A stretch of 64,000 nt of DNA from an uncultured Planctomycetota bacterium (GTDB taxonomy: Bacteria > Planctomycetota > Planctomycetia > Isosphaerales > Isosphaeraceae), in contig CAWGMQ010000008.1 of the NCBI GenBank assembly GCA_963823665.1, positions 1,920,001 through 1,984,000 on the forward strand, in the 5' to 3' direction. A program made the position numbers and the translations under genes. This document shows, one piece after another, positions 12,471 through 62,669 of this stretch; position 1 is the stretch's first letter, and each line of letters begins with the position of its first letter. The notes under the pieces are model-generated. The model did no database searches and had not been told where the DNA came from. It was given only the letters and a program-made list of their open reading frames with translations.

Positions 12471-12561
12471 GGAGAATCAGGTATGTTGTCGCCGGAACGG
12501 AGTTGTTGGGGGCTCACGCAAACTCGTTACAGCGCGGAATGAAGCACGGAGTGAAGAGATA

Positions 12562-12890
12562 CACGGAACGAGGAAGCGAAAGGCGCAGAGCGATAGGCGG
12601 AGATGGGCTCACGCAAAGGCGCCAAGGTCGAGAAGGCGCGAATCGAACATGCAGGCGCTGTGATCAGGTTCTGTTGAACGGCGGGAGTTCAATTCGACGG
12701 AGTTCAGGGATCGCACTTATTCTTGTCATGCACGGAACGGGGGAGTAAAAGGCGCAGAGCGATAGGCGGAGATGGGCTCACGCGAAGTCGCAAAGGCGCC
12801 AAGGGGGAGAAGGCGCGAATCGAACATGCGGGCACTGTGATCAGGGTCAGTTGAATGGCGGGAGTTCGATTCGACCGGTCTCGGGGATCG
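12562..12890 (+). repeat. Two imperfect tandem units of about 169 bp
   Basis: CACGGAACG...AGGCGCAGAGCGATAGGCGGAGATGGGCTCACGC...CGCGAATCGAACATGC...GTTGAA.GGCGGGAGTTC at about 12562 and 12731. Confidence 0.85.
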
Positions 12891-13163
12891 GAGGGATGGC
12901 ATCTGGGACGTCGTTGGGGCCCAAGCTGACACGGTACAAGAATCGCGGGGCGGAGGGAGTCTGTAGGGTAGCTGAGGGAGACACGCCGCTCTTGCACGAG
13001 GTGGAGCGGACTTACGCGGACGTCTTCAGGGCTCTAGTGCTCCGGCGAAGACTTTGAAGTAGGATGCGAAGCGAGCAATGTATTGGACGCAGGACTCGCT
13101 GGTCTGTGGCGTGAAATTGCGGAGGGTCGCATCCTCGATCATGCGGCGGCGCAAGGGTGTCAT
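12890..13163 (-). pseudogene. Tyrosine integrase N-terminal (SAM-like) remnant, copy 1
   Basis: MTPLRRRMIEDATLRNFTPQT..., frameshifted and truncated. Confidence 0.8.
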
Positions 13164-13448
13164 GTGGGGCTCCTTTGCGCGTGAACCGGATTGAGTGAGA
13201 GACAATCCGTTCACGATGCCACAACTGAGCAGAGAAGGGGCACATCAAGACCAGCGCACGGAGAAGGAAGCCGCGCGCAGCGAGGCGGACGACAGCAGCA
13301 CAGGGAGAAGACAGTCGAGGAGAAGCGCAGATGCGCCCAGAGGTCGAGCTGAAGCTCGTTCTAGCCCATCGCGGAGCGGTTTAGTTCAACACCGATTCGA
13401 GAACGCCAAACGTTGACCAAAATTCTGGTCTGGTCTACAATTTCCCGC

Positions 13449-13772
13449 ATGGCGTGGAGCGTGGAACTGAAAGAGTCGGTGCTCGACGACCTCCGCTGGT
13501 TTGGGAAGAAGAACGCGCGTCAGCTTCTCCAGGCGGCGCTCGAGCGGCTGGAAGAAGACCCGCTAACCGAGACTCGCCAAATGAAGACGTTGCGGCCGAA
13601 TTCCGTCGCTGGACGCGAACTGCGGCTCTTCGGAAAGTACCGCGTGCTGTTCCGGGTCGATGCGCCCTCGCGGGTGGTCACGATCGTTCTTGTCGGAGAG
13701 AAGCGGGGCGAGGTGTTGCTCGTTCAAGGGAAGGAGTATGCCGAACACCATGAAACTGATACCTTTGAGTGA
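13449..13772 (+). CDS. Type II toxin, RelE/ParE superfamily
   Basis: MAWSVELKESVLDDL...RELRLFGKYRVLFRVD...VTIVLVGEK. Confidence 0.85.
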   Translation: MAWSVELKESVLDDLRWFGKKNARQLLQAALERLEEDPLTETRQMKTLRPNSVAGRELRLFGKYRVLFRVDAPSRVVTIVLVGEKRGEVLLVQGKEYAEHHETDTFE

Positions 13773-13989
13773 AGCCAAGGCGCACTTGAGCCAGTACGGG
13801 CGATTGTGCCACGACGAGCCCGTTATCGTCACGGTGAACGGTGTACCCTCATTCCAACTCGTTCCCCTGGAAGAGGACGACGACCTGATCGGCCGCTTGC
13901 TCGAGCATCATCCGTCGTTTCGCAAGATGTTGGAGGCCCGGCTCCGGGAGAGGAGCGTCACGGCTCGTGAGGCGCTAAAGCGGCTGTGA
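13750..13989 (+). CDS. Type II antitoxin, Phd/YefM family
   Basis: MKLIPLSEAKAHLSQY...EPVIVTVNGVP; overlaps the 3' end of the toxin gene. Confidence 0.85.
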   Translation: MKLIPLSEAKAHLSQYGRLCHDEPVIVTVNGVPSFQLVPLEEDDDLIGRLLEHHPSFRKMLEARLRERSVTAREALKRL

Positions 13990-14001
13990 AGGCGCGGGAA
14001 A

Positions 14002-14061
14002 TGTCACGGCAGTGATCGCCTAATTTTGACCCCCCATGCTCGTCTGAAACTGACCCCCTCG
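14002..14061 (+). mobile_element. Isolated IS21-type terminal sequence
   Basis: Starts TGTCA, followed by two internal direct repeats (TTTTGACCCC and AACTGACCCC), as in IS21 ends. Confidence 0.5.
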
Positions 14062-14142
14062 GTTCTTGAAATTAGCCGTTCTGGGCAAACGCGGCTGTTT
14101 GCTTCTTACTGCGATCTCTTTCCCTTCTTCTGTTTCATCAAC

Positions 14143-14457
14143 TCACAGAACCGATACGGGAAGTGTGCGCGGCTGCTTGACCGGAGGGATGGCATCCGGG
14201 ACGTCGTTGCGACCCAAGCTGACACGATACAAGAATCGCAGGGCGGAGCGAGTCTGCTGGTAGTAGCTGAGGGAGACACGGCGCTCTTGCACGAGGTGAA
14301 CGAGGAAGGCGGGGACGTCTTCAGGGCTGATGTGCTCCGGCGACGATTTGAAGTAGCGTGCGAAGCGAGCAATGCATTGGACGTGGGATTCGATGGTCTG
14401 TGGCGTGAAATTGCGGAGGGTCGTATCCTCGATCATGCGGCGGGGCAAGGGGGTCAT
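14143..14457 (-). pseudogene. Tyrosine integrase N-terminal remnant, copy 2
   Basis: MTPLPRRMIED...RSALRFLYRVSLG...KQPRTLPV, truncated before the catalytic domain. Confidence 0.85.
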
Positions 14458-15193
14458 GGGCGGCTCATTTGCGAGTAAATGGGATTGAGTGAGAGACGAC
14501 CCGTTCAGGATGCCGCATCGGAGCAGAGATGGGGCACATGATAGTTAGCGCGCGGAGAAGGAAGCCACGCGCAACGAGGCGGACGATGGCAGCACGAGGG
14601 GAGGACAGTCGAGGAAAGATGCCGGTGCTGCAACGGTCGAGCGGGAGCTCTTTCGTGCCCACCGCGGAGCGAGTTAGCTTAACCCCGGAACCCATGATTT
14701 GTTGCCATGTTCCCTAGCGGACCTGATCCAGGTCGAACCAGTTAGCGTCTGCCCCTTCACATCTAGATGAGTGAGGAACGCCGCGTCTACCGCGGTCGAC
14801 TGACGGCGCGAAAGCCCGCTCGACTTCGCCAAGCAACGAGCCGATGTTGCGGGCGGCACAGGAGCCGTAGCGATCAGAGGACGTTGTATCTATCACAATG
14901 ACTTAGAGTCCGAGTGTGACATGCGACGTCTCTGATTGATTGCGTTTAAAAAATGCCTGCATTCCCTTTTTTTTGTGGACCTCCAGCACGATCTGATCGT
15001 AACGAGGGTCTGTGAGCTCTGGCGTCTGGATGACTTCGCTTATCCCGTGTTCTCGAAGGTTCATGGCACCATCGTGGCTTAGGGGAGAAAGGAATAAGCT
15101 GCTTACGCCAGATCGGAGACGAAGGATCGGAGTTTGCTCATTACGGCCGGAATTACCTCGGGTTGCCATATTGGACATAAAGGTAGGATAAAG

Positions 15194-26590: not shown

Positions 26591-27467
26591 AAATTATTAC
26601 TGTGGCCGCTGGGGGATCGAGATCTATTTCCGGATTCTCAAATCCGGGTGCAAGGTCGAGGAGTCCCAATTGCAGACGGCCGAGCGCTTCCTGCCGTATC
26701 TGGCGTTGTGCATGGTCGTGGCGTGGCGTATCCAGTATCTGGTAATGCTTGGCCGGGAATGTCCGGACCTGCCCTGTGACGTTGCTTTCGACGACGATGA
26801 ATGGAAGACGGTCTACGCGGCCGTCAAAAATCAACCGCCTCCCAAAAAGCCTCCCTCGCTCAAAACGATGATCGGCCTGGTGGCATCGTTGGGGGGATAC
26901 CTGGGCCGCAAGGGGGACGGGGAACCTGGACCGAAGGTTCTTTGGGTCGGCCTTCAGCGTATGACAGATCTGGTTCGCGGATGGCGAGCTTTCGCCCGGC
27001 ACGGCCAAGTCCAAGCAGAGCCGGTTCCGGCAGCCGAGCCTCCGGCAGGCCAGCCACCAGGGTGACCGTCGGTTTTGCTGCCCGCCTGACCTGCGGCTGA
27101 TCACGCCCGCGCCGGGACGGTTGTTTCCAACCAAAGGTTGAACCGCCCTCGGCGAAGTGGCCAACCCTTCCACCCCTCCCAGTAAGCCCGACGGTCTGAC
27201 ACCCCCAGCATCGCCTGGGCCGCGGCGGTTGCGCTCCCCCCACCGCCATGGCCGCGCTCCGCGTTCATAGCACCTGGTCCCATTGCGCGCCGACCTGCCT
27301 GGCTCGGGATCGTTGAAGCGGGGGCCGCGCCGGCGCCGCGCACTTGTGCGTAACCCCGAGGTGTCTTGGTTCACCGTGAAATGGAATTTCGTCCGATTGG
27401 CGTAAATGAATGGGGAACGGCATCGTGGCCTGGATGTCGCGGCATCGTGCCGCGAAGGTTTGTCGCA

Positions 27468-27605
27468 TTGGTGCCAATCCCGGAGCTGTCGTGCTGCGAT
27501 CGAGGAGAGAGCGCAGAGCCGAGGTATGCTCGGCTCTGGCTCCGGTCTTGGCCCCTGGCTCGGCGCTCGGGGTGCTCCTCAGCAGTGCCCTATCCTCCGC
27601 CCAGG
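27468..27605 (-). ncRNA. Candidate structured RNA in the IS3 3' non-coding region (copy A)
   Basis: Conserved blocks and compensatory base changes relative to 62468-62583. Confidence 0.55.
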
Positions 27606-27635
27606 TCAACATCGTTTGTAGCTCGTCCGCGATCT

Positions 27636-28918
27636 TCACGCAACCTCTTGTGACCCGTGTCTAACTGTTGCTCGACGCTCGCGCGCCTCCTCCAGCTTGC
27701 GGTCACGCTCAGCGAAGATTTCTTTTTCCAGCCCGATCAACTTGTCGGCTGGGGTCAAATAACCTAACGCGCTATGCAACCGTATATTATTGTAGTGATC
27801 CACATATGATGCAATGTGACGTAGAGCCTCATCGAACGAAGACACCGCCGCTGGCCGTACGCACTCGCGTTTCAAACTGCCGTGCCAGCGCTCAAGTTTT
27901 CCGTTCGATTGCGGATAATACGGGCTCGTCCGAACGTGCGTTATGCCCGTCAGCCGGATGAATTCCTTGAAATCCCGGGCAATGAACTGCGGGCCATTGT
28001 CACTGATGATCCGTGGCTTTTCTCCTGGATGCCGCTCCAACGCCCGCTGGATGATTGTCTCGACTTCGCGCTCGGTCATGCTCTCACGAATCTCCCAGTG
28101 CACAATGTATCGGCTGCAACCGTCCAGCACGCTCGTCAGGTAGTAAAACGTCCCCGAGACGTTGATGTAAGAGATGTCCACATGCCAGTGTTCATGAGGC
28201 ACCAGTGGTTGCACGAAGCCGGTTCCCTTCTTCGACGGTGAGAACCGCCTGCGATCGAGCCGGTTCGCTTGCTTGAGCACGCGATAGACGCTCGCTGGGC
28301 TGACGGCCACCACGTCGTCGTCGAGCATCATGAAGGTCAAGCGGCGATATCCTTCGAGAGGATGGCGATCGTGAAAATCGACGATGGCTCGTTTTTCCCA
28401 GTCCTCGAGCCACCAATCGCGCGGGACCTTGCCGTTGTGCTCGTTGACTTTGCCGTAACGGTGCTTCCAGTCGTGGAACTTACTTGTGCCCAGGCCGAGC
28501 CAACTCAGGAGCTGACGAGCCGGAAGCTCCGTGCGGTCGACCCAATGCTTGACGTAGTCGACGACCTGGTCACGCGTGTCGTGGGGAACCCAGGCTCCGT
28601 TCAGAGTTCCCCAAGTTCTTTTTTTAGCTGGACGTGCTCCTGCATCAGCTCGGCGATGACCTCGTTCTTCTTGACGAGACTGGATTGGAGCCGCTCGACG
28701 AGCTTCGCTTGAAGCCGCTCTGCGCGGGGCGGACGGCCTGCTGCGCGCTCCAAAGCATGCTCGGCCTGGTCGAGTACCTGCTTAATCCAGTTGTGGATCT
28801 GGCTGGGTTGAAGGCCGAACTCATCGGCCAAGTTGGAAACAGGCTCTTTGCCACTGATATGGCGACGGACGATTTGAGCCTTTTGCGGCGCTGAGAAATG
28901 CCGGCGCGACTGTCTCAT
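27636..28918 (-). CDS. IS3 transposase OrfAB (programmed -1 frameshift)
   Basis: OrfA HTH at 28601-28918; A7G slippery site at 28618-28625; OrfB in the -1 frame with WHVDISY, ISDNGPQF and PQSNGKLER. Confidence 0.9.
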
Positions 28919-28989
28919 GGAACTCACCTCCGATAGGGTTAATTATAACCCAACCGGCGCGACATTCTATTTTCAGGTGAGGCAGGACA

Positions 28990-29612
28990 CATTCGGTTTC
29001 TGTCTGCTGGCAGTGATAGAAAAACTCAAAGTCGTCGGCGCCACGATCAACTACGTGAATCCAGGAGGTTCCCGACGGCGGGGATCCCATTTGGATGACA
29101 AGATCACCCCAGATCTGTGATTCGCGATCGTCACGCTGCAACCGTTCGGTCCGCGTCTCCCCCTTACGAACGCGCTGACGATGATAGATCAGTTGTCCGG
29201 CCAAGCCGTGAACCCGGTCGTCTTCGGGGGAAACCATCAAACCCGAGTGAAGGTGAAAGCCTTGTCCGATACCCGAACCAACCGGCGAAAGACCTGTGAC
29301 CTGTCGGCACGGCCCGTAATCGATTTCGGTCGTGTCTGCGATGATCAATTGACGCTCACCTGCTGTCTTCTTGGTAAGCTCCCAATGGTGACTGGCGATC
29401 GCTTGAAAGGTGACGTCCTCACAATCGAAGAAATTGTATGCGGCCCTCAGATCATTCCAGGATTCGGTTTGCTGAGGAAAACTCCCGGACGGATCTGCGG
29501 CGATCTGCGTTGCCAACAGAACGAGTCGTTTGGTACGGCGTTCGTCATGAAGATCAGTGGTGGCGAATTGGGTCATGGCCCAAGTCTGCGCATCTGAAAG
29601 AAAGGTGTCCAT
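28990..29612 (-). pseudogene. Second IS4-family transposase, N-terminal half, truncated by IS3
   Basis: WAMTQF..DLHDERRTKRL, ADTTEID, HVVDRGAD; ends exactly at the IS3 terminus. Confidence 0.85.
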
Positions 29613-31159
29613 CCGAGGCTCCGGCGGTTGAAACGCGATCCCTCCCCCCCACCTCAGCGTGTGGCTTGGCTTGATATTACCAGGTGCGAAGCGAGAAAAG
29701 CCGGGAAAAGGCCGGGGAAGCGCACCTATGACCACCAGAAAATGATGGTAAGGACAAAGGCTCACGCCCCGAGCTTTACGATGCCGCCCCCAACGGGGGC
29801 TTGGGTCGTCGGCAATGGCGGAGCCTCCATTGCGCAGCTTGCTTGACCGATTATTGCCCGCGTTCGTTACAACCCGCACATCCGGACGCCACCTCAGAAG
29901 TTTCCGGGACCAAGCGGGGATTTTGCGCAAAAATTTTGACCGTTTTGCAGATCGTCTTGTTTAAAGAGACCTGCTCGATCGTCGGTCGTGGGCCGGCGAG
30001 GGATTTTGGGCAGGGCTTGATCATCCCGAAGACGAAGAGGATACGATCATGACTTCCGCGGCGAGAATTGCTGCTAGCCAGGCGAATGGGCGGAAATCTC
30101 GAGGGCCGGTCACTCCGGAAGGGCGCGCGGTCGCAAGCATGAATGCTTTGCGCCATGGCCGGCGATCCAAGCGGATGGCCCTTATCGAGGACATTTCTTA
30201 CTCGTACGAGGAACGCCGGCGCAAGTGGATGGCCCGGCATGATGCCAGTAATGATGTCGAGGAATTCATCATGTCGCGGTGCGCCTCGATGGCATCGAAA
30301 CTCGAACGCATCGAGCGCGCGGACGCGGAAGGGTTTCGCACGCAGATTGAGAAAGCGGACGACACGGAATACGCGGAGGTGCTCGCGCTGGGGAAATGCC
30401 TCGTTTTTAATCGCTGCGGATCCATGGGAACCTATGGACTGAAACCGAGCTTTGCACTCAAGGCCAAGACTTCCTTCAGCGGGCAGCCGCTCGAGCCGGA
30501 AGAGCCGTTCGTAATTGTCGGGAAACTGGAATCTAGCGAGATGGGGACGAGGCATTTGCTGGACATTTGGGGCGGGCTGCGCGCACGACTCGAGCCGGGT
30601 AAATTCTGGCAGGCTCCCGATCGGTTCCAGGCCATCCGCCTGCTCGGGCATCAGCCGATTGACGCGCGGTTCGACGAAGCCTGCGCCGCGATCTTTTATG
30701 CCAGCGCCAAGCTCGAGCGGGGGAAGCCCGAGCCGTTCAGTGAACTGCGCAGCGATCTTGATGCCGATCAGCTTACGGAGCTGCGCAAGGACGTGGCCAA
30801 ACGGTTTCCCGAGCTGGCGGCGCTCGAGGATCGAGCCGAGTGCAGGCAGATCTTGCTCGACATCGTCGATCAGAAAGTCGAACGGCTCGAAGAGATCTTG
30901 AAAAAGCATGAAGAGAACGCGGACGCTGAGGCCGAGCGAGTGGTCGCTCAGAAGGGATTTGATACCAGCCCGCGGGGCAAGCAACTGAGTGACTACGAGT
31001 TGAAGTACGATCGGGCGTATCGCCAATCGCTCGCTGTGTACGAGAAGCTGACGGGTGAAAGGCGTGGGGCCTGGAACGGCAAGGATGAAACTTGGCGCGG
31101 AGGGCCGGCACGCCCCGAGCCGAGGGTGCCGTCGCCTTACGGCACGAAAACTGATGAGT

Positions 31160-33070: not shown

Positions 33071-33165
33071 ATGAGTATTATGTGGAGCCTTTGGTCAAGC
33101 CGGCGGGGCGAGGTGTGAACGCTGGATCGAACGAGTCTGTGCCGGCGGCCAGCGCGGGAGCGGAC

Positions 33166-33340
33166 GGCTCACGGAGTGAGCCTGCTACTTTTGGGAGTGG
33201 TGTGGACCAGAATCGGGGGGCGACGGGGTTGGCGGCGGGCGGCTCACGGAGTGAGCCTGCTACTTTTGGGACCGGTGCGGACCAGGAACGGGGGGCGACT
33301 GCGCTGGCCGCGGGCGGCTCACGGAGTGAGCCTGTTACTC
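33166..33340 (-). repeat. Three GTAG-type REP-like palindromes at 75-bp period, in frame within the CDS
   Basis: GGCTCAC-GGA-GTGAGCC-TG(C/T)TAC at 33166, 33241 and 33316. Confidence 0.85.
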
Positions 33341-33957
33341 TGGGCGGGGCGGAGAGAGGGTGGGAGTCGGTCAAGGTCGAAGCTGAGGACGTTGTGGCGT
33401 GTCAGGGGTTCCTTCCGACACGGTGCGTTGGCTTGGACGGTGACGATCGAGACGCTGGCATAGGCAGTGCTACCCGAGACACTGGCGTAGTCAGTGAGAC
33501 GCAAGAGTGGGATGCTGGTGTCGAAGGCGACGACCCAGATGGGGACACTGGTTTGGGCGGTGACATGTATGAGGATGCTGGTTTAGCTGGTGGATTCTTT
33601 CCTGTGCGACGACCCCCCACCGCCGCCGGAGGCGGCATCTTCCCCACGAGGGGGGAGGAAATCGTGACGAACGAACCTAAACTCGATCAGGATGTGATCA
33701 CAGCACAAAATGAGGAGTCTGTTGAGGTTGTGGCGAATTCCGGTGTTTTTTCGGGACTTGACACGTTACGAACGAACCCAAAGCCGGGGTGCGGCGGGGA
33801 AGAAGAGGAAGGTGCAAGATCGAAATCCGTAGATCTCAATTCGAAGCACGAATCGCGAAATTCGGAATCCGAAGAGGAACGAGATCCCGGTGATAGCGGG
33901 AACGAAGACCAGCCGTTGGACGTGCGGCGTGCGGATATCTTGAGTCGAACGACTTGG

Positions 33958-34070
33958 GCGGAGACCCTCACCCCGGCCCTCTCCCGGGGGGAGAGGGAGC
34001 GTGATTCGGAGCGTTCGGCTTCCGCGGAGACCCTCACCCCGGCCCTCTCCCGGGGGGAGAGGGAGCGTGG
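33958..34070 (+). repeat. Two copies of a CCCTCACCCCGGCCCTCTCCC..GGGAGAGGG palindromic repeat
   Basis: Near-identical units about 66 bp apart, each encoding AETLTPALSRGERER. Confidence 0.85.
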
Positions 34071-34157
34071 TTCGAAGGACCCTGCGAAAGCTTTCCTACG
34101 CGCGAACCCCCCACCTCCGCCGGGGGCGGCACCTCCGCCGCGAAGGGGGAGGACGTG

Positions 34158-59720: not shown

Positions 59721-60348
59721 GACCAAACTGAAATGGTTCTGCGTGAAACGGAGTTTCTCGGCACCGGAGAAGCACCAGGAGCGAAGGATTGCCGCGCTTC
59801 AGGACAAGCTTCAGCGCAAGAACGAGGTCGTGGCCGAGTTGTTGGAGGAGCACGTGAAGCTAAAAAAAGTACTTGGGAAACTCTGACTGGAGCCTGGCTT
59901 CCCCATGACATTCGCGACCAGGTCGTCGACTACGTTCGCTATTGGTCAGACCGGACGGAGACCCCGACCAAGCAGCTCGTCCAATGGATCGGCCTCAGCC
60001 AGAGCAAGTTCTATGACTGGCGGAAGCGCTACGGCAAAGCGAACGAGCATAACGGCTGGATTCCCCGCGATTGGTGGCTCGAAGACTGGGAAAAGCAGGC
60101 CATCGCTGAGTTTCACGACCAAAACCCGCTTGAGGGTTACCGGCGTCTCACCTTCATGATGCTCGATGCCGATGTGGTGGCAGCTAGCCCCTCGAGCGCC
60201 TACCGAGTACTCAGCGACGCTGGACTGATGAAGCGGCATAACACCAAAGCGTCCCTCAAAGGAACCGGCTTTCAGCAACCACTCGGTCCGCACGAGCACT
60301 GGCACGTCAACATTGCCTACATCAATGTTCGGGGGACTTTCTTCTTTC

Positions 60349-61902
60349 GCCTCCTCAGCAGAATCTGTGGGTAAATTCTGGCTCAGGCAGGGCGCCAAGG
60401 CTGTGATACAAGGCGTTTTTCACTGCATCGAACGTCCGAAAACCGTACGCCTTTCTCGTCGTCAATTTCACCTTGTTGTTCAGGCCCTCTGCAATGCCTG
60501 CGGAAATCGTCCCACGGGCCTTGAACCAATTCAGGATCAATTCTTCATGGCTGCGAAGCCTTCGAGCCACTTTCTTCATTGGCTCGATCTTTGATCGCAT
60601 CGTCCTGGTGCACCACTCGTGCAGAAATCGACTCGCCCAGCCGTGATATTGGTAAGTCCAGAAACGCTGAAAATCCTCCCGCAAAAGATAGCTTCTCACG
60701 GACTTTAGGTTGTACTGCACCAGTTCGGCCAATCTCACGGTCTGCTTCTTTGTTAGGTTCTCCGGCCGCTTCAGCAGGCACCATCGCGCCCGTTTCAGGA
60801 CTGGCTCGTAGCCATCTCGCTTCAGCCGGCGCGCTTCCTCGGCACGTACTTCGTCGATCGCCTTATTCATCGCTTGCATGATGTGAAAGCGGTCGAGCAC
60901 GTGGATCGCGCCAGAAACCTCTTGGGCCAGCACGTTGAGGTACGGTTTCCACATATCGCTGCATAGATAGCGGATCGAGTTCTTGGTCTCGTCGGTTATG
61001 GTTTGGAAAAAGCCACGCAGGCTTTCCTCCGTCCGGTCCAACCCAATCCAGAGCAACCGCCTGAACCCAGCGTCAATCTGGTAAACCAGCGTCAGGTAAT
61101 GATGGCCCCTTTGCCACTGCACTTCGTCTACAGCGATGGCCTTGATTCCGGTCATCGTCCGTCTCGCCAAGCCCCATGCGACTGCATACTCGACCGAGCG
61201 GTACACAGTTTCCCAGGTAGTATGGAATATCAAGGCGACTTCCAGCCACGAGAGCCGCTTGGCCCAACCGGCTAGAAACCATCGGTAGGCCGTAGTCACC
61301 GGGCTCTTGCCGTCACTCCACGGGACCTCTTCGACGATCACACCGCACTTCGGGCAGTCAACGCGCCTCATTGCGTAGACAAAGAACACAGCGATCTGCC
61401 AGAGCGGCACGAACTCGAACCTTCGTACAGGTAGTTGATCATACCCGGCTCGCTTACGGTGGCACCCGGAGCAAACAGCTCGGCTGTTGCGGCGGGCTTC
61501 AATTTCTACCTCCAAGGCAAGTTGCTTTCCTTTCGAGACCAAACTTACCTTGCCGTACACGAAGGACTTTTGCGGTGCAATGCGATTGAGGATAGTCTTG
61601 AGGAGCATCGTGTGGGGCCTCTCGATTGGGATGGTCTTGGTAACCCTTCCCTAACCGACGGCCGCGCACGATGCACTACCCTACCTTCTTCAAAAAAACC
61701 TTTCTCAAGAACGAGTCCGCGAAGAGCTATTTAAAACTGAACCATCAAATGTGAACTTCGCCTACCCCTCCCGCCTTCACCTTCGCTTCGCCCTCAACCT
61801 AGCAGGGCGGACCGAATGTGAAGGTGGGAGGGAGAACCCTCCTGTCGAGCCCGAGCCGAGCTGCTGCATCGTTTTTCAACCCACAAATTCTGCCGAAGAC
61901 CC
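60349..61902 (-). mobile_element. ISL3-family element, copy 2
   Basis: Same ends and length (1554 bp) as copy 1; perfect 8-bp duplication CTTCTTTC at 60341-60348 and 61903-61910. Confidence 0.95.
60355..61608 (-). CDS. ISL3-family transposase
   Basis: Protein identical to 25043-26296. Confidence 0.95.
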   Translation of the reverse strand: MLLKTILNRIAPQKSFVYGKVSLVSKGKQLALEVEIEARRNSRAVCSGCHRKRAGYDQLPVRRFEFVPLWQIAVFFVYAMRRVDCPKCGVIVEEVPWSDGKSPVTTAYRWFLAGWAKRLSWLEVALIFHTTWETVYRSVEYAVAWGLARRTMTGIKAIAVDEVQWQRGHHYLTLVYQIDAGFRRLLWIGLDRTEESLRGFFQTITDETKNSIRYLCSDMWKPYLNVLAQEVSGAIHVLDRFHIMQAMNKAIDEVRAEEARRLKRDGYEPVLKRARWCLLKRPENLTKKQTVRLAELVQYNLKSVRSYLLREDFQRFWTYQYHGWASRFLHEWCTRTMRSKIEPMKKVARRLRSHEELILNWFKARGTISAGIAEGLNNKVKLTTRKAYGFRTFDAVKNALYHSLGALPEPEFTHRFC

Positions 61903-62467
61903 CTTCTTTCTTTGCAGCTTGCTCGATGGTTACAGCCGATCGATCGTGCACTGGGAAATCCGCCCGAAAATGGAAGAAAGCGCCGTCGAGACGATCTTCC
62001 AGAGAGCACGTGAGTGCTATCCGGGTGTCTCTCCCCGGATCATCAGTGACAATGGTCCACAGTTCATTGCTCGAGAATTCAATGATATAAGTTACATATG
62101 TTGTATTATACATGTTCCAACTTCGCCTTACTATCTCCAAAGCAATGGCAAGATCGAGCGATGGCATCGTTCGATCAAATCGGAGTGCATCCGTCCTCGC
62201 ACACCACTTTCAGTGGACGATGCCGTTCGCCTAATTGACGGCTATTTCCGGCACTACAATGAGGCGCGGCTCCACCGTGCGATCGACTATGTAACTCCGG
62301 TGGACAAGATGTGCGGTCGCGACAAGCAGATCTTCGCTGACCGAGATCGTAAGCTCGACGAAGCAAGGAGCCGCCGGCAGGCGGTTTGTGTCCAGCAGCG
62401 TCAAGCTGGTTGACGTGATTTGGGAGCAGTTGTTAATGCCAGCGCGTGGACTTACGATGGCCAGTGG

Positions 62468-62583
62468 CCCGGGGCGGAGGATAGGGCTCCGTGGCGACAT
62501 GACCTGAGCGCCGTCCCAGGGACCAAGACCGAGGAAGGGCGGCAGGAAGCCGCCCCGCATTCCACCTACGGGATTGGTACCAA
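62468..62583 (+). ncRNA. Candidate structured RNA in the IS3 3' non-coding region (copy B)
   Basis: Conserved blocks and covariation relative to 27468-27605. Confidence 0.55.
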
Positions 62584-62669
62584 AGCGCTAAATCGCTCTT
62601 GCTCGCTTTTTTCTCAACCACTACCTAACGCCGCAAACCGGAAACTCCATTTCACGCTGAACCATTACA

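Follow-up and report, generated by a model that had tools for sequence, protein, structure and literature searches.

Insertion sequences (ISs) are known to encode guide RNAs (IS200/605, IS110/IS1111) and antisense RNAs (IS10, IS200). RNA-OUT of IS10 is an antisense regulator of transposase translation, and art200 of IS200 reportedly has the same role. Twister, pistol and hatchet are self-cleaving ribozymes found beside mobile-element genes, while single-strand origins (ssoA and others) and single-strand initiation (ssi) sites are strand-specific covarying hairpins swapped as cassettes between mobile replicons. In bridge RNAs, variable loops specify target and donor for one enzyme family, as bioRxiv 10.64898/2026.10.21.760802 describes them. 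Ssr9/MITEPpu9 of ISPpu9, an IS110 family element of Pseudomonas putida KT2440, is described in PMC12288879 as a small-RNA (sRNA) gene downstream of the transposase that also occurs solo; there it is reported from three P. putida strains and one IS, is thought to pair with the element's own Asr9 RNA, and is read by its authors as a hitch-hiking selfish module dispensable for transposition. Here we analyzed a 64,000-nt stretch of DNA (the window) from an uncultured Planctomycetota bacterium of the Isosphaeraceae (assembly GCA_963823665.1, contig CAWGMQ010000008.1, positions 1,920,001 to 1,984,000), in which two IS3-family elements carry long tails that stretch from the transposase stop codon to the end of the IS, 274 nt in element 1 and 256 nt in element 2. 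A first-pass annotation had noticed that these tails share a structured element, which it ascribed to one IS3 subgroup and interpreted as a noncoding RNA or cis element. The observation of structured shared tails is confirmed, and that interpretation is partly supported. We consider it probable that the tail holds a portable sRNA gene of about 125 to 150 nt, likely with its own sigma-70-type promoter, which resides in the noncoding ends of several unrelated IS families and of at least one miniature element.

Both tails contain one RNA module, at 27456-27605 on the minus strand and at 62469-62595 on the plus strand (Table 1). It consists of a four-helix domain 1 with a purine-rich invariant internal loop, a long variable hairpin (domain 2) and a 3' block, AAGCGNNAAA-YYY. 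The three sequence blocks previously seen in both tails are present, including the block GGGCGGAGGATAGGGC, which is identical at 16 of 16 positions. The motif delimited earlier is real, yet 12 nt longer: the 3' block pairs with the apical loop in a pseudoknot, a contact that the earlier structure had overlooked, and this carries the motif to 27456 and to 62595. The general fold proposed for domain 1 stands, except for the register of its GGCG/CGCC stem: it is CGG/CCG that forms the invariant helix, and the base before it is part of the outer stem, which covaries. Similarly, the tandem GA/GA mismatches described for domain 2 occur in the window copies but in only 33 of 83 sequences overall, with Watson-Crick pairs instead in some. 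Independent minimum free energy (MFE) folds of the two copies agree in shape (-67.7 kcal/mol with z = -2.2 for copy 1, and -58.2 kcal/mol with z = -1.4 for copy 2). These z-scores alone are modest; the support for the fold rests on covariation.

For domain 1, we aligned 128 distinct 59-nt cores to a structure made of a 6-bp outer stem, CGG/CCG, the internal loop AGGAUA/GAGCG, GGG/CCC, and a 4-bp hairpin. Within this alignment 94.3% of the cells are paired, and 301 cells show double-sided changes, compared with 83.7 ± 12.2 after shuffling (0 of 500 shuffles reached 301); when the structure was slid by 1 to 3 columns, at most 46% of the cells paired. There are 16 invariant columns, every one of which lies within or adjoins the internal loop. 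Domain 2 was aligned with MAFFT only, in 83 full-length sequences, where the basal helices are paired in 85.6% and 76.0% of the cells and all 10 pairs show double-sided changes; these pairing figures are lower bounds, as the register is lost in some rows. G-U cells exceed A-C cells (83 versus 23 and 96 versus 43), and this excess indicates that the strand given here is the one that folds; in the window it is the transposase-sense strand. Covariation and the G-U excess bear out the earlier claim of a structured, covarying noncoding element on that strand.

The pseudoknot emerged from a mutual-information scan, where positions 2 to 4 of the tetraloop covary with the three bases after AAA of the 3' block and rank right behind the best hairpin pairs. 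Here 97.2% of 249 cells are paired, and 72 cells are double-sided compared with 21.4 ± 4.5 in shuffled alignments, while slid versions pair in at most 60%. At least seven compensating loop/tail combinations were found among 115 sequences, namely GGGA/UCC (51), GAGG/CCU (19), GGAG/CUC (11), GCGA/UCG (7), GGGG/CCC (6), GAAG/CUU (3) and GAGA/UCU (2), and the fourth tail base showed no pairing with the first loop base in this set. The window copies compensate as well: copy 1 has GAGG/CCU, whereas copy 2 has GCGA/UCG. GNRA-type loops are present in 77 of the 128 domain-1 sequences. Pairing of GGAGGA with the CU-rich stretch of domain 2, as a second pseudoknot, was considered and is unsupported: a complement of at least 5 nt occurs in 63 sequences versus 49.6 ± 4.7 after shuffling, but one of at least 6 nt in 15 versus 13.5.

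What these data show is a pseudoknotted fold, specific to one strand and with an invariant loop, that several unrelated mobile elements carry as a module. The thought that it is instead a repeat or miniature transposon, conserved for DNA-level sites that a transposase or host protein binds and having no folded function, would suit its multiple and patchy copies, their position near transposases and often at contig ends, and the terminal inverted repeats (TIRs) of one lineage. Nevertheless, compensatory changes preserve six helices despite sequence change, the wobble pairs are biased to one strand, and the invariant bases lie in loops, outside palindromes. This explanation is already contradicted by covariation, and we hold it to be extremely improbable.

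A promoter-like signal, overlooked in the earlier account, precedes the fold. When the sequences upstream of CGG were aligned in 137 deduplicated copies, TANNNT was found at -22 to -18 from CGG in 77 copies, compared with 0 to 4 in four control windows, and 34 of these 77 have TTG 16 to 19 nt upstream of the -10-like hexamer. The hexamers are TACAAT, TACACT, TAGAAT, TATACT, TATAAT and similar ones, with clear examples in lower-GC genomes; TACGAT is the most frequent at this position in the IS3 group. According to the fixed position of the hexamer, transcription would begin 1 to 2 nt ahead of the outer stem. Within domain 2, the inner hairpin together with the pyrimidine-rich unpaired stretch behind it conforms to a terminator definition in 36 of 126 copies, compared with 37 of 630 shuffles. 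The textbook terminator form is seen in lower-GC genomes, and 30 of the 36 hairpins precede the 3' block. A shorter RNA may end at this hairpin in about a quarter of the copies, and the conserved covarying sequence that lies beyond it suggests that short and full pseudoknotted forms probably coexist. Taken from these sequence signals, the module appears to be transcribed on its own. Contigs of four soil metatranscriptome studies also lie on the tail, deepest over domain 1; they give a weak hint only, because they show neither strand nor ends and may include DNA and relatives.

The main rival explanation is a folded single-stranded DNA (ssDNA) signal, of the single-strand initiation or origin type, that would convert the displaced strand to a double-stranded circle in copy-out-paste-in transposition. 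IS3, IS21, IS110 and ISL3 are families forming circular intermediates, and it is because these carriers copy out through circles that the idea is attractive. A further context of the module is a gene for an AAA_25 protein, which has a RepA-type helicase fold. In addition, a function on one strand fits ssDNA as well as RNA, and whether the module runs with or against the transposase might depend on which end supplies the strand; as PMC5737381 points out, ssDNA and RNA motifs cannot be separated by comparison. However, a linear -35/-10 signal at a fixed upstream distance would be useless if single-stranded, and the terminator-like hairpin with its T run is enriched in domain 2. The 3-bp loop-tail pseudoknot stands behind an A-rich linker, an arrangement that is typical of RNA, as are the GNRA loops. 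Solo copies are found beside host genes and in a miniature element bounded by TIRs, and plasmids offer no counterpart: a blastn search of 72,556 plasmid records with the type A module returned two chance-level matches only (E 0.5). With these points taken together, we regard the ssDNA signal as unlikely. A plasmid origin was rejected on the same blastn result, the AAA_25 protein being likewise without a tblastn match in plasmids.

To follow the distribution of the module, a search with an OrfB alignment was run over one genome per species and returned 79 loci, labelled Planctomycetota, Acidobacteriota, Armatimonadota, Hydrogenedentales, one Hyphomicrobiaceae metagenome-assembled genome (MAG) and one 'Pseudomonas sp.' MAG. 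The domain-1 covariance model, R1, matches 33 of the 79, all 33 in sense and downstream of OrfB; in these loci, as in both window elements, the module is flanked by orfB and the right inverted repeat (IRR). In the remaining 46 the tail is short (L084, L095) or is conserved in a different form, and the earlier claim that canonical short-tailed relatives lack the element holds. A degenerate two-block pattern, scanned over 1 of 64 parts of a metagenome collection, yielded 120 loci, which extrapolates to about 9,700 stretches. The strict core is present in 108 of the 120, the remainder being chance matches in coding DNA. By the genome labels given above, the module occurs in at least five phyla. 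An OrfB-like frame lies upstream on the same strand in 15 of the 108 loci and downstream on the opposite strand in 14 (the gene neighbourhoods of L110 to L229 cover flanks of 300 to 400 nt). In this opposite-strand, antisense IS3-like group, the module sits within the element at a distance of about 95 nt from an IS end, TGAAGTGAACCCC, and reads inward.

The module is also not confined to one IS3 subgroup, as had been claimed; it occurs in or beside IS21, IS110, ISL3 and IS3/IS481-like elements, behind the AAA_25 gene and in a TIR-flanked miniature element. Pfam scans of the flanks show that in IS21 carriers it stands antisense after istB, between istA and istB, or, once, within an open istA frame, and that ISL3 transposases adjoin other copies. 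In L260 (3220-5127, plus strand), the module lies between the HTH and rve parts of an istA frame that remains open through it. IS110 transposase neighbours show sense-downstream, convergent and divergent arrangements, and over all these families, IS3/IS481-like elements included, copies are sense, antisense or divergent; in one further context the module follows a DUF1670 gene. The AAA_25 protein, which also has a winged-helix part, measures 338 aa and has 1,231 relatives, many on contigs of 4.3 to 5.1 kb, and nine loci (L110, L122, L125, L127, L133, L158, L219, L229 and L266) carry the module directly behind its stop codon.

In most non-IS3 copies we observed a GC hairpin right after the pseudoknot tail, preceded by a second G run and lacking a U tail; this stretch reads AAAUCC-CAGGGGGU-CUGGGGGAC-AGC-GUCCCCCAG and may pair alternatively with the tail.

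Copies without any transposase are found as well. Genome G271 has four (L269, L275, L278 and L279), which share a unit of about 330 bp; at its ends lie imperfect terminal inverted repeats of about 26 bp that start GGCTCCTCGCTG and, at the other end, GGCACCTCGCTA. This miniature element carries only the RNA module, its solo copies being bounded by element-end repeats, and the four stand in different host contexts, beside EF-P, RsmB, MerR and other host genes. Two of the four have a 13-nt deletion in domain 2. A 316-nt unit is common to L245 and L256. Overall, the occurrence is patchy, with the module in 9 of 150 other genomes in a sample of the window's phylum and in 9 of 150 in a second phylum sample, numbers on which a host housekeeping RNA was rejected. 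A phage feature was rejected too, since a viral contig collection gave only 4 loci, one of them a chance match.

These arrangements bear on another explanation, in which the module would be a cis element in the 3' untranslated region (UTR) of the transposase mRNA, with a role in stability, in 3'-end formation or in capturing the transposase during translation. The strictly sense position right behind orfB in the window's IS3 lineage favors it, and so does the -35-like hexamer that overlaps the stop codon. But the module is antisense or divergent in other IS3-like, IS21, IS110 and ISL3 elements, it has solo and miniature-element copies with no transposase at all, and it has a promoter signal of its own. 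The four unrelated transposase families and both orientations make a 3' UTR role, or the transposase-binding role also proposed in the first-pass annotation, a poor fit, and we consider the cis element distinctly unlikely.

A guide-type RNA, of the bridge RNA/seekRNA or omega RNA kind, that programs target or end recognition would likewise be a structured RNA with internal loops in a noncoding IS end, and some copies do adjoin IS110 transposases. Bridge RNAs have variable loop segments, but here the internal loop is invariant in the 128 sequences and across elements whose ends differ. The domain-2 strand CCAAGACCG is unrelated to the IRR termini CCAAGACA, CCATTACA, CCAGGACA and CCAGCACA or to the flanks, so a guide for ends or targets was rejected; nothing in the module tracks element ends and flanks, and copies within one genome have unrelated flanks. 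As to partner enzymes, IS110 domains (the DEDD recombinase of bridge RNAs) stand beside a minority only (L144, L153, L169, L252 and L258), most carriers having the rve, IstB or ISL3 domains of DDE enzymes, and no TnpB or IscB family was met in any flank scanned with Pfam. We therefore judge a guide function very improbable.

Conservation through a small conserved open reading frame (ORF), which had been raised as a check, is not the explanation. Among the 83 full-length rows, stops interrupt every frame in at least 32, and no Pfam family is matched by the two long ORFs that cover the tails. Rfam 15 gave 0 matches in the whole window at the gathering score and nothing relevant on either tail at E up to 10, so no Rfam 15 family claims the element. 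On 13 diverse loci, with E up to 0.5, no Rfam match covers the module; the matches were of tRNA type, with one Tymo_tRNA-like, and a weak Clostridiales-2 match adjoins the module in L253 (24.9 bits versus a gathering score of 58.6). The accessible parts of the RNA-discovery papers PMC5737381, PMC11109978 and bioRxiv 10.64898/2026.10.21.760802 describe no such RNA, and in the literature searched we found no description of an RNA common to IS3, IS21, IS110 and ISL3 across phyla, though supplements of discovery papers could hold it as an unnamed motif. The module is a widespread RNA module of mobile elements, without an entry in Rfam 15 or in the literature searched.

According to the above-described analysis, a portable sRNA gene seems the best account of the tails. 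Its invariant loop and pseudoknot are predicted to form a pocket or surface that would bind a conserved cellular partner or catalyze a reaction. The RNA may act in trans or on its own transcript, in favor of the element or, as a hitch-hiking module, of itself; it is expected to act neither as a guide nor as a transposase-specific site. Several observations weigh against this account. No partner, target or ligand was found. The covarying helices and G-T wobbles would fit folded ssDNA too, which is the caution given in PMC5737381. The upstream TANNNT is absent from 60 of the 137 copies and not clear in the antisense IS3-like group, and a consensus promoter and terminator scan of both window tails returned nothing relevant, reporting neither promoter-like site (scores of 7 and 8 of 12, with copy 2 below threshold). 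Transcription in the window's own organism is predicted from sequence signals, and the metatranscriptome contigs mentioned above may derive from DNA or relatives. Furthermore, the 3' block follows the terminator-like hairpin, so the short and the pseudoknotted forms would be different molecules. Lastly, in five loci (L243, L246, L247, L250 and L260) a reverse-complement 3' block lies 45 to 90 nt upstream of domain 1 and the normal downstream block is missing; in three of the five, the inverted block is accompanied by its GC hairpin.

We tentatively raise a more far-reaching possibility, in which the module would represent a new class of compact pseudoknotted RNA, catalytic (self-processing) or binding a universal cellular factor, that has spread across phyla in the ends of circle-forming ISs and miniature elements. 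If this were true, it would be a general accessory RNA of DNA transposons, with a reach comparable to that of retroelement ribozymes. Should the module be a working RNA, DDE transposons would commonly carry a conserved accessory RNA, with possible roles in transposition control, host-factor interaction or self-processing. For annotation it provides a marker of long 'empty' IS tails, and for structural biology a small fold that combines an invariant loop with a well-supported pseudoknot.

The two carrier elements of the window are listed in Table 1 together with the parts of each module copy. In element 1, a Pfam scan identified orfA as HTH_Tnp_1 (1.2e-9) and orfB as rve (4.7e-22), and both ends were located (right, ...GAACCAAGACA; left, TGTCCTGCC...). 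Its tail has 5 further near-identical tails elsewhere in the same genome, and the hairpins of the tail remainder (UCGCGGCACGAUGCCGCGA and GGCCACGAUGCC) recur in relatives with compensating changes, as judged by eye and uncounted. The shared 16-mer block has 9 exact and 3 one-mismatch copies in this 16.46-Mb genome, which represent four tail variants. The reading frames of element 2 are split by the inserted ISL3 element, of which a repeat finder located two copies in the window (25030-~26440 and 60342-~61750) that are 99% identical across a 300-bp arm; its transposase of 417 aa matches DDE_Tnp_ISL3 at 8.2e-73.

Table 1. Positions in the window of the two IS3-family elements and of the module parts they carry
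Feature	Position	Strand	Description	Basis
IS3-family element 1 (type A)	27362..28989	minus	orfA 28601-28927, orfB 27636-28340	
Promoter-like site, copy 1	27615..27643	minus	TTGCGT (27643-27638, overlaps orfB stop codon), 17-nt spacer, TACAAA (27620-27615)	read from sequence; 7 of 12
Domain 1, copy 1	27554..27605	minus	outer stem CCUGG/CCAGG, CGG/CCG, internal loop AGGAUA/GAGCG, GGG/CCC, hairpin UGCU-GAGG-AGCA	MFE fold, covariation, R1 covariance model 74.1 bits
Domain 2, copy 1	27473..27552	minus	GCCAA-GA-CCGGA / UCCGG-GA-UUGGC around hairpin CAGAGCCGAG/CUCGGCUCUG and unpaired CU-rich stretch	fold, basal-helix covariation
3' block, copy 1	27456..27469	minus	AAUGCGACAAACCU; terminal CCU (27458-27456) pairs with AGG of domain-1 loop (27579-27577)	
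Remainder of element 1 tail	27362..27455	minus	hairpins UCGCGGCACGAUGCCGCGA, GGCCACGAUGCC and right inverted repeat	read from sequence
IS3-family element 2 (type C)	59729..62669	plus	ISL3 element inserted at ~60342-61750	
Promoter-like site, copy 2	62430..62458	plus	TTGTTA, 17-nt spacer, TACGAT	read from sequence; 8 of 12
Domain 1, copy 2	62469..62520	plus	hairpin CGUG-GCGA-CAUG	fold; R1 match 64 bits
Domain 2, copy 2	62522..62578	plus	ACCAA-GA-CCG / CGG-GA-UUGGU around GGGCGGC/GCCGCCC	fold, covariation
3' block, copy 2	62583..62595	plus	AAGCGCUAAAUCG; UCG (62593-62595) pairs with CGA of loop (62495-62497)	

Next to the left end of element 1, a 369-aa ORF with Tnp_DNA_bind (28821-29930, minus strand) may belong to another, interrupted insertion sequence. 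Repeats unrelated to the module lie at 421-1507, 12559-14628, 33160-33309 and 33950-34077; tandem or dispersed, they comprise 429- to 432-bp units, segments spaced by about 1.29 kb, and 75-bp and 66-bp tandem units.

Other IS3 tails are conserved in their own way. Eight loci with Acidobacteria/Terriglobia labels (L081, L085, L094, L099, L102, L105, L107 and L108) share a different tail of about 300 nt after OrfB, which opens with TACAAT and includes GAGGGAUAAC, a hairpin whose loop CUUAUCC is complementary to GAGGGAUAAC, CGGACGAUAGACC and a GC hairpin; no Rfam match was obtained for it in L085 or L094. A third tail type (L054, L055, L060 and L100) combines AGGCUAGC with a covarying hairpin whose loop, GGCAAUGAG, is conserved; it gave no Rfam match in L054, L060 or L100.

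Compared with the known systems, the module resembles RNA-OUT and art200 as an IS-encoded small RNA with its own, here putative, promoter, whereas both of those RNAs overlap the transposase mRNA at its 5' end and the module lies at the opposite end. Pairing of the module loop with the orfA leader was considered and rejected: GAUAGGG/CCCUAUC exists in type A only, upstream of the orfA Shine-Dalgarno sequence, and is lacking in 9 other motif-bearing left ends. With RNAduplex, module and left end gave -103 kcal/mol versus -95.5 ± 7.7 for shuffled sequences, which is not significant. With ssoA and ssi sites it shares covarying hairpins that are specific to one strand and move as cassettes among mobile replicons, but it has a linear upstream promoter signal, a terminator-like hairpin, a pseudoknot and no match in the plasmid records searched. 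The likeness to ribozymes and orphan riboswitch-like classes is one of style only, comprising size, an invariant internal loop, a loop-tail pseudoknot, varying gene orientation and association with selfish elements, while no Rfam model of such a class matches even at the permissive thresholds used. A riboswitch is further disfavored by downstream genes that are inconsistent or absent, and by conserved sequence that continues after the terminator-like hairpin (present in 36 of 126 copies).

Bridge RNA and seekRNA of IS110 and IS1111 are also structured noncoding RNAs in a long noncoding IS end; the module differs from them in that its loops are invariant, nothing in it follows ends or flanks, and its carriers are mostly DDE elements. 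By analogy, the closest precedent appears to be Ssr9/MITEPpu9. As described, Ssr9 is an sRNA gene within an IS, behind the transposase, with solo copies flanked by element-end sequences, and the module probably belongs to the same kind. Likened to Ssr9 by description, the module differs in its extension over at least five phyla and at least four transposase families, its invariant core and its pseudoknot.

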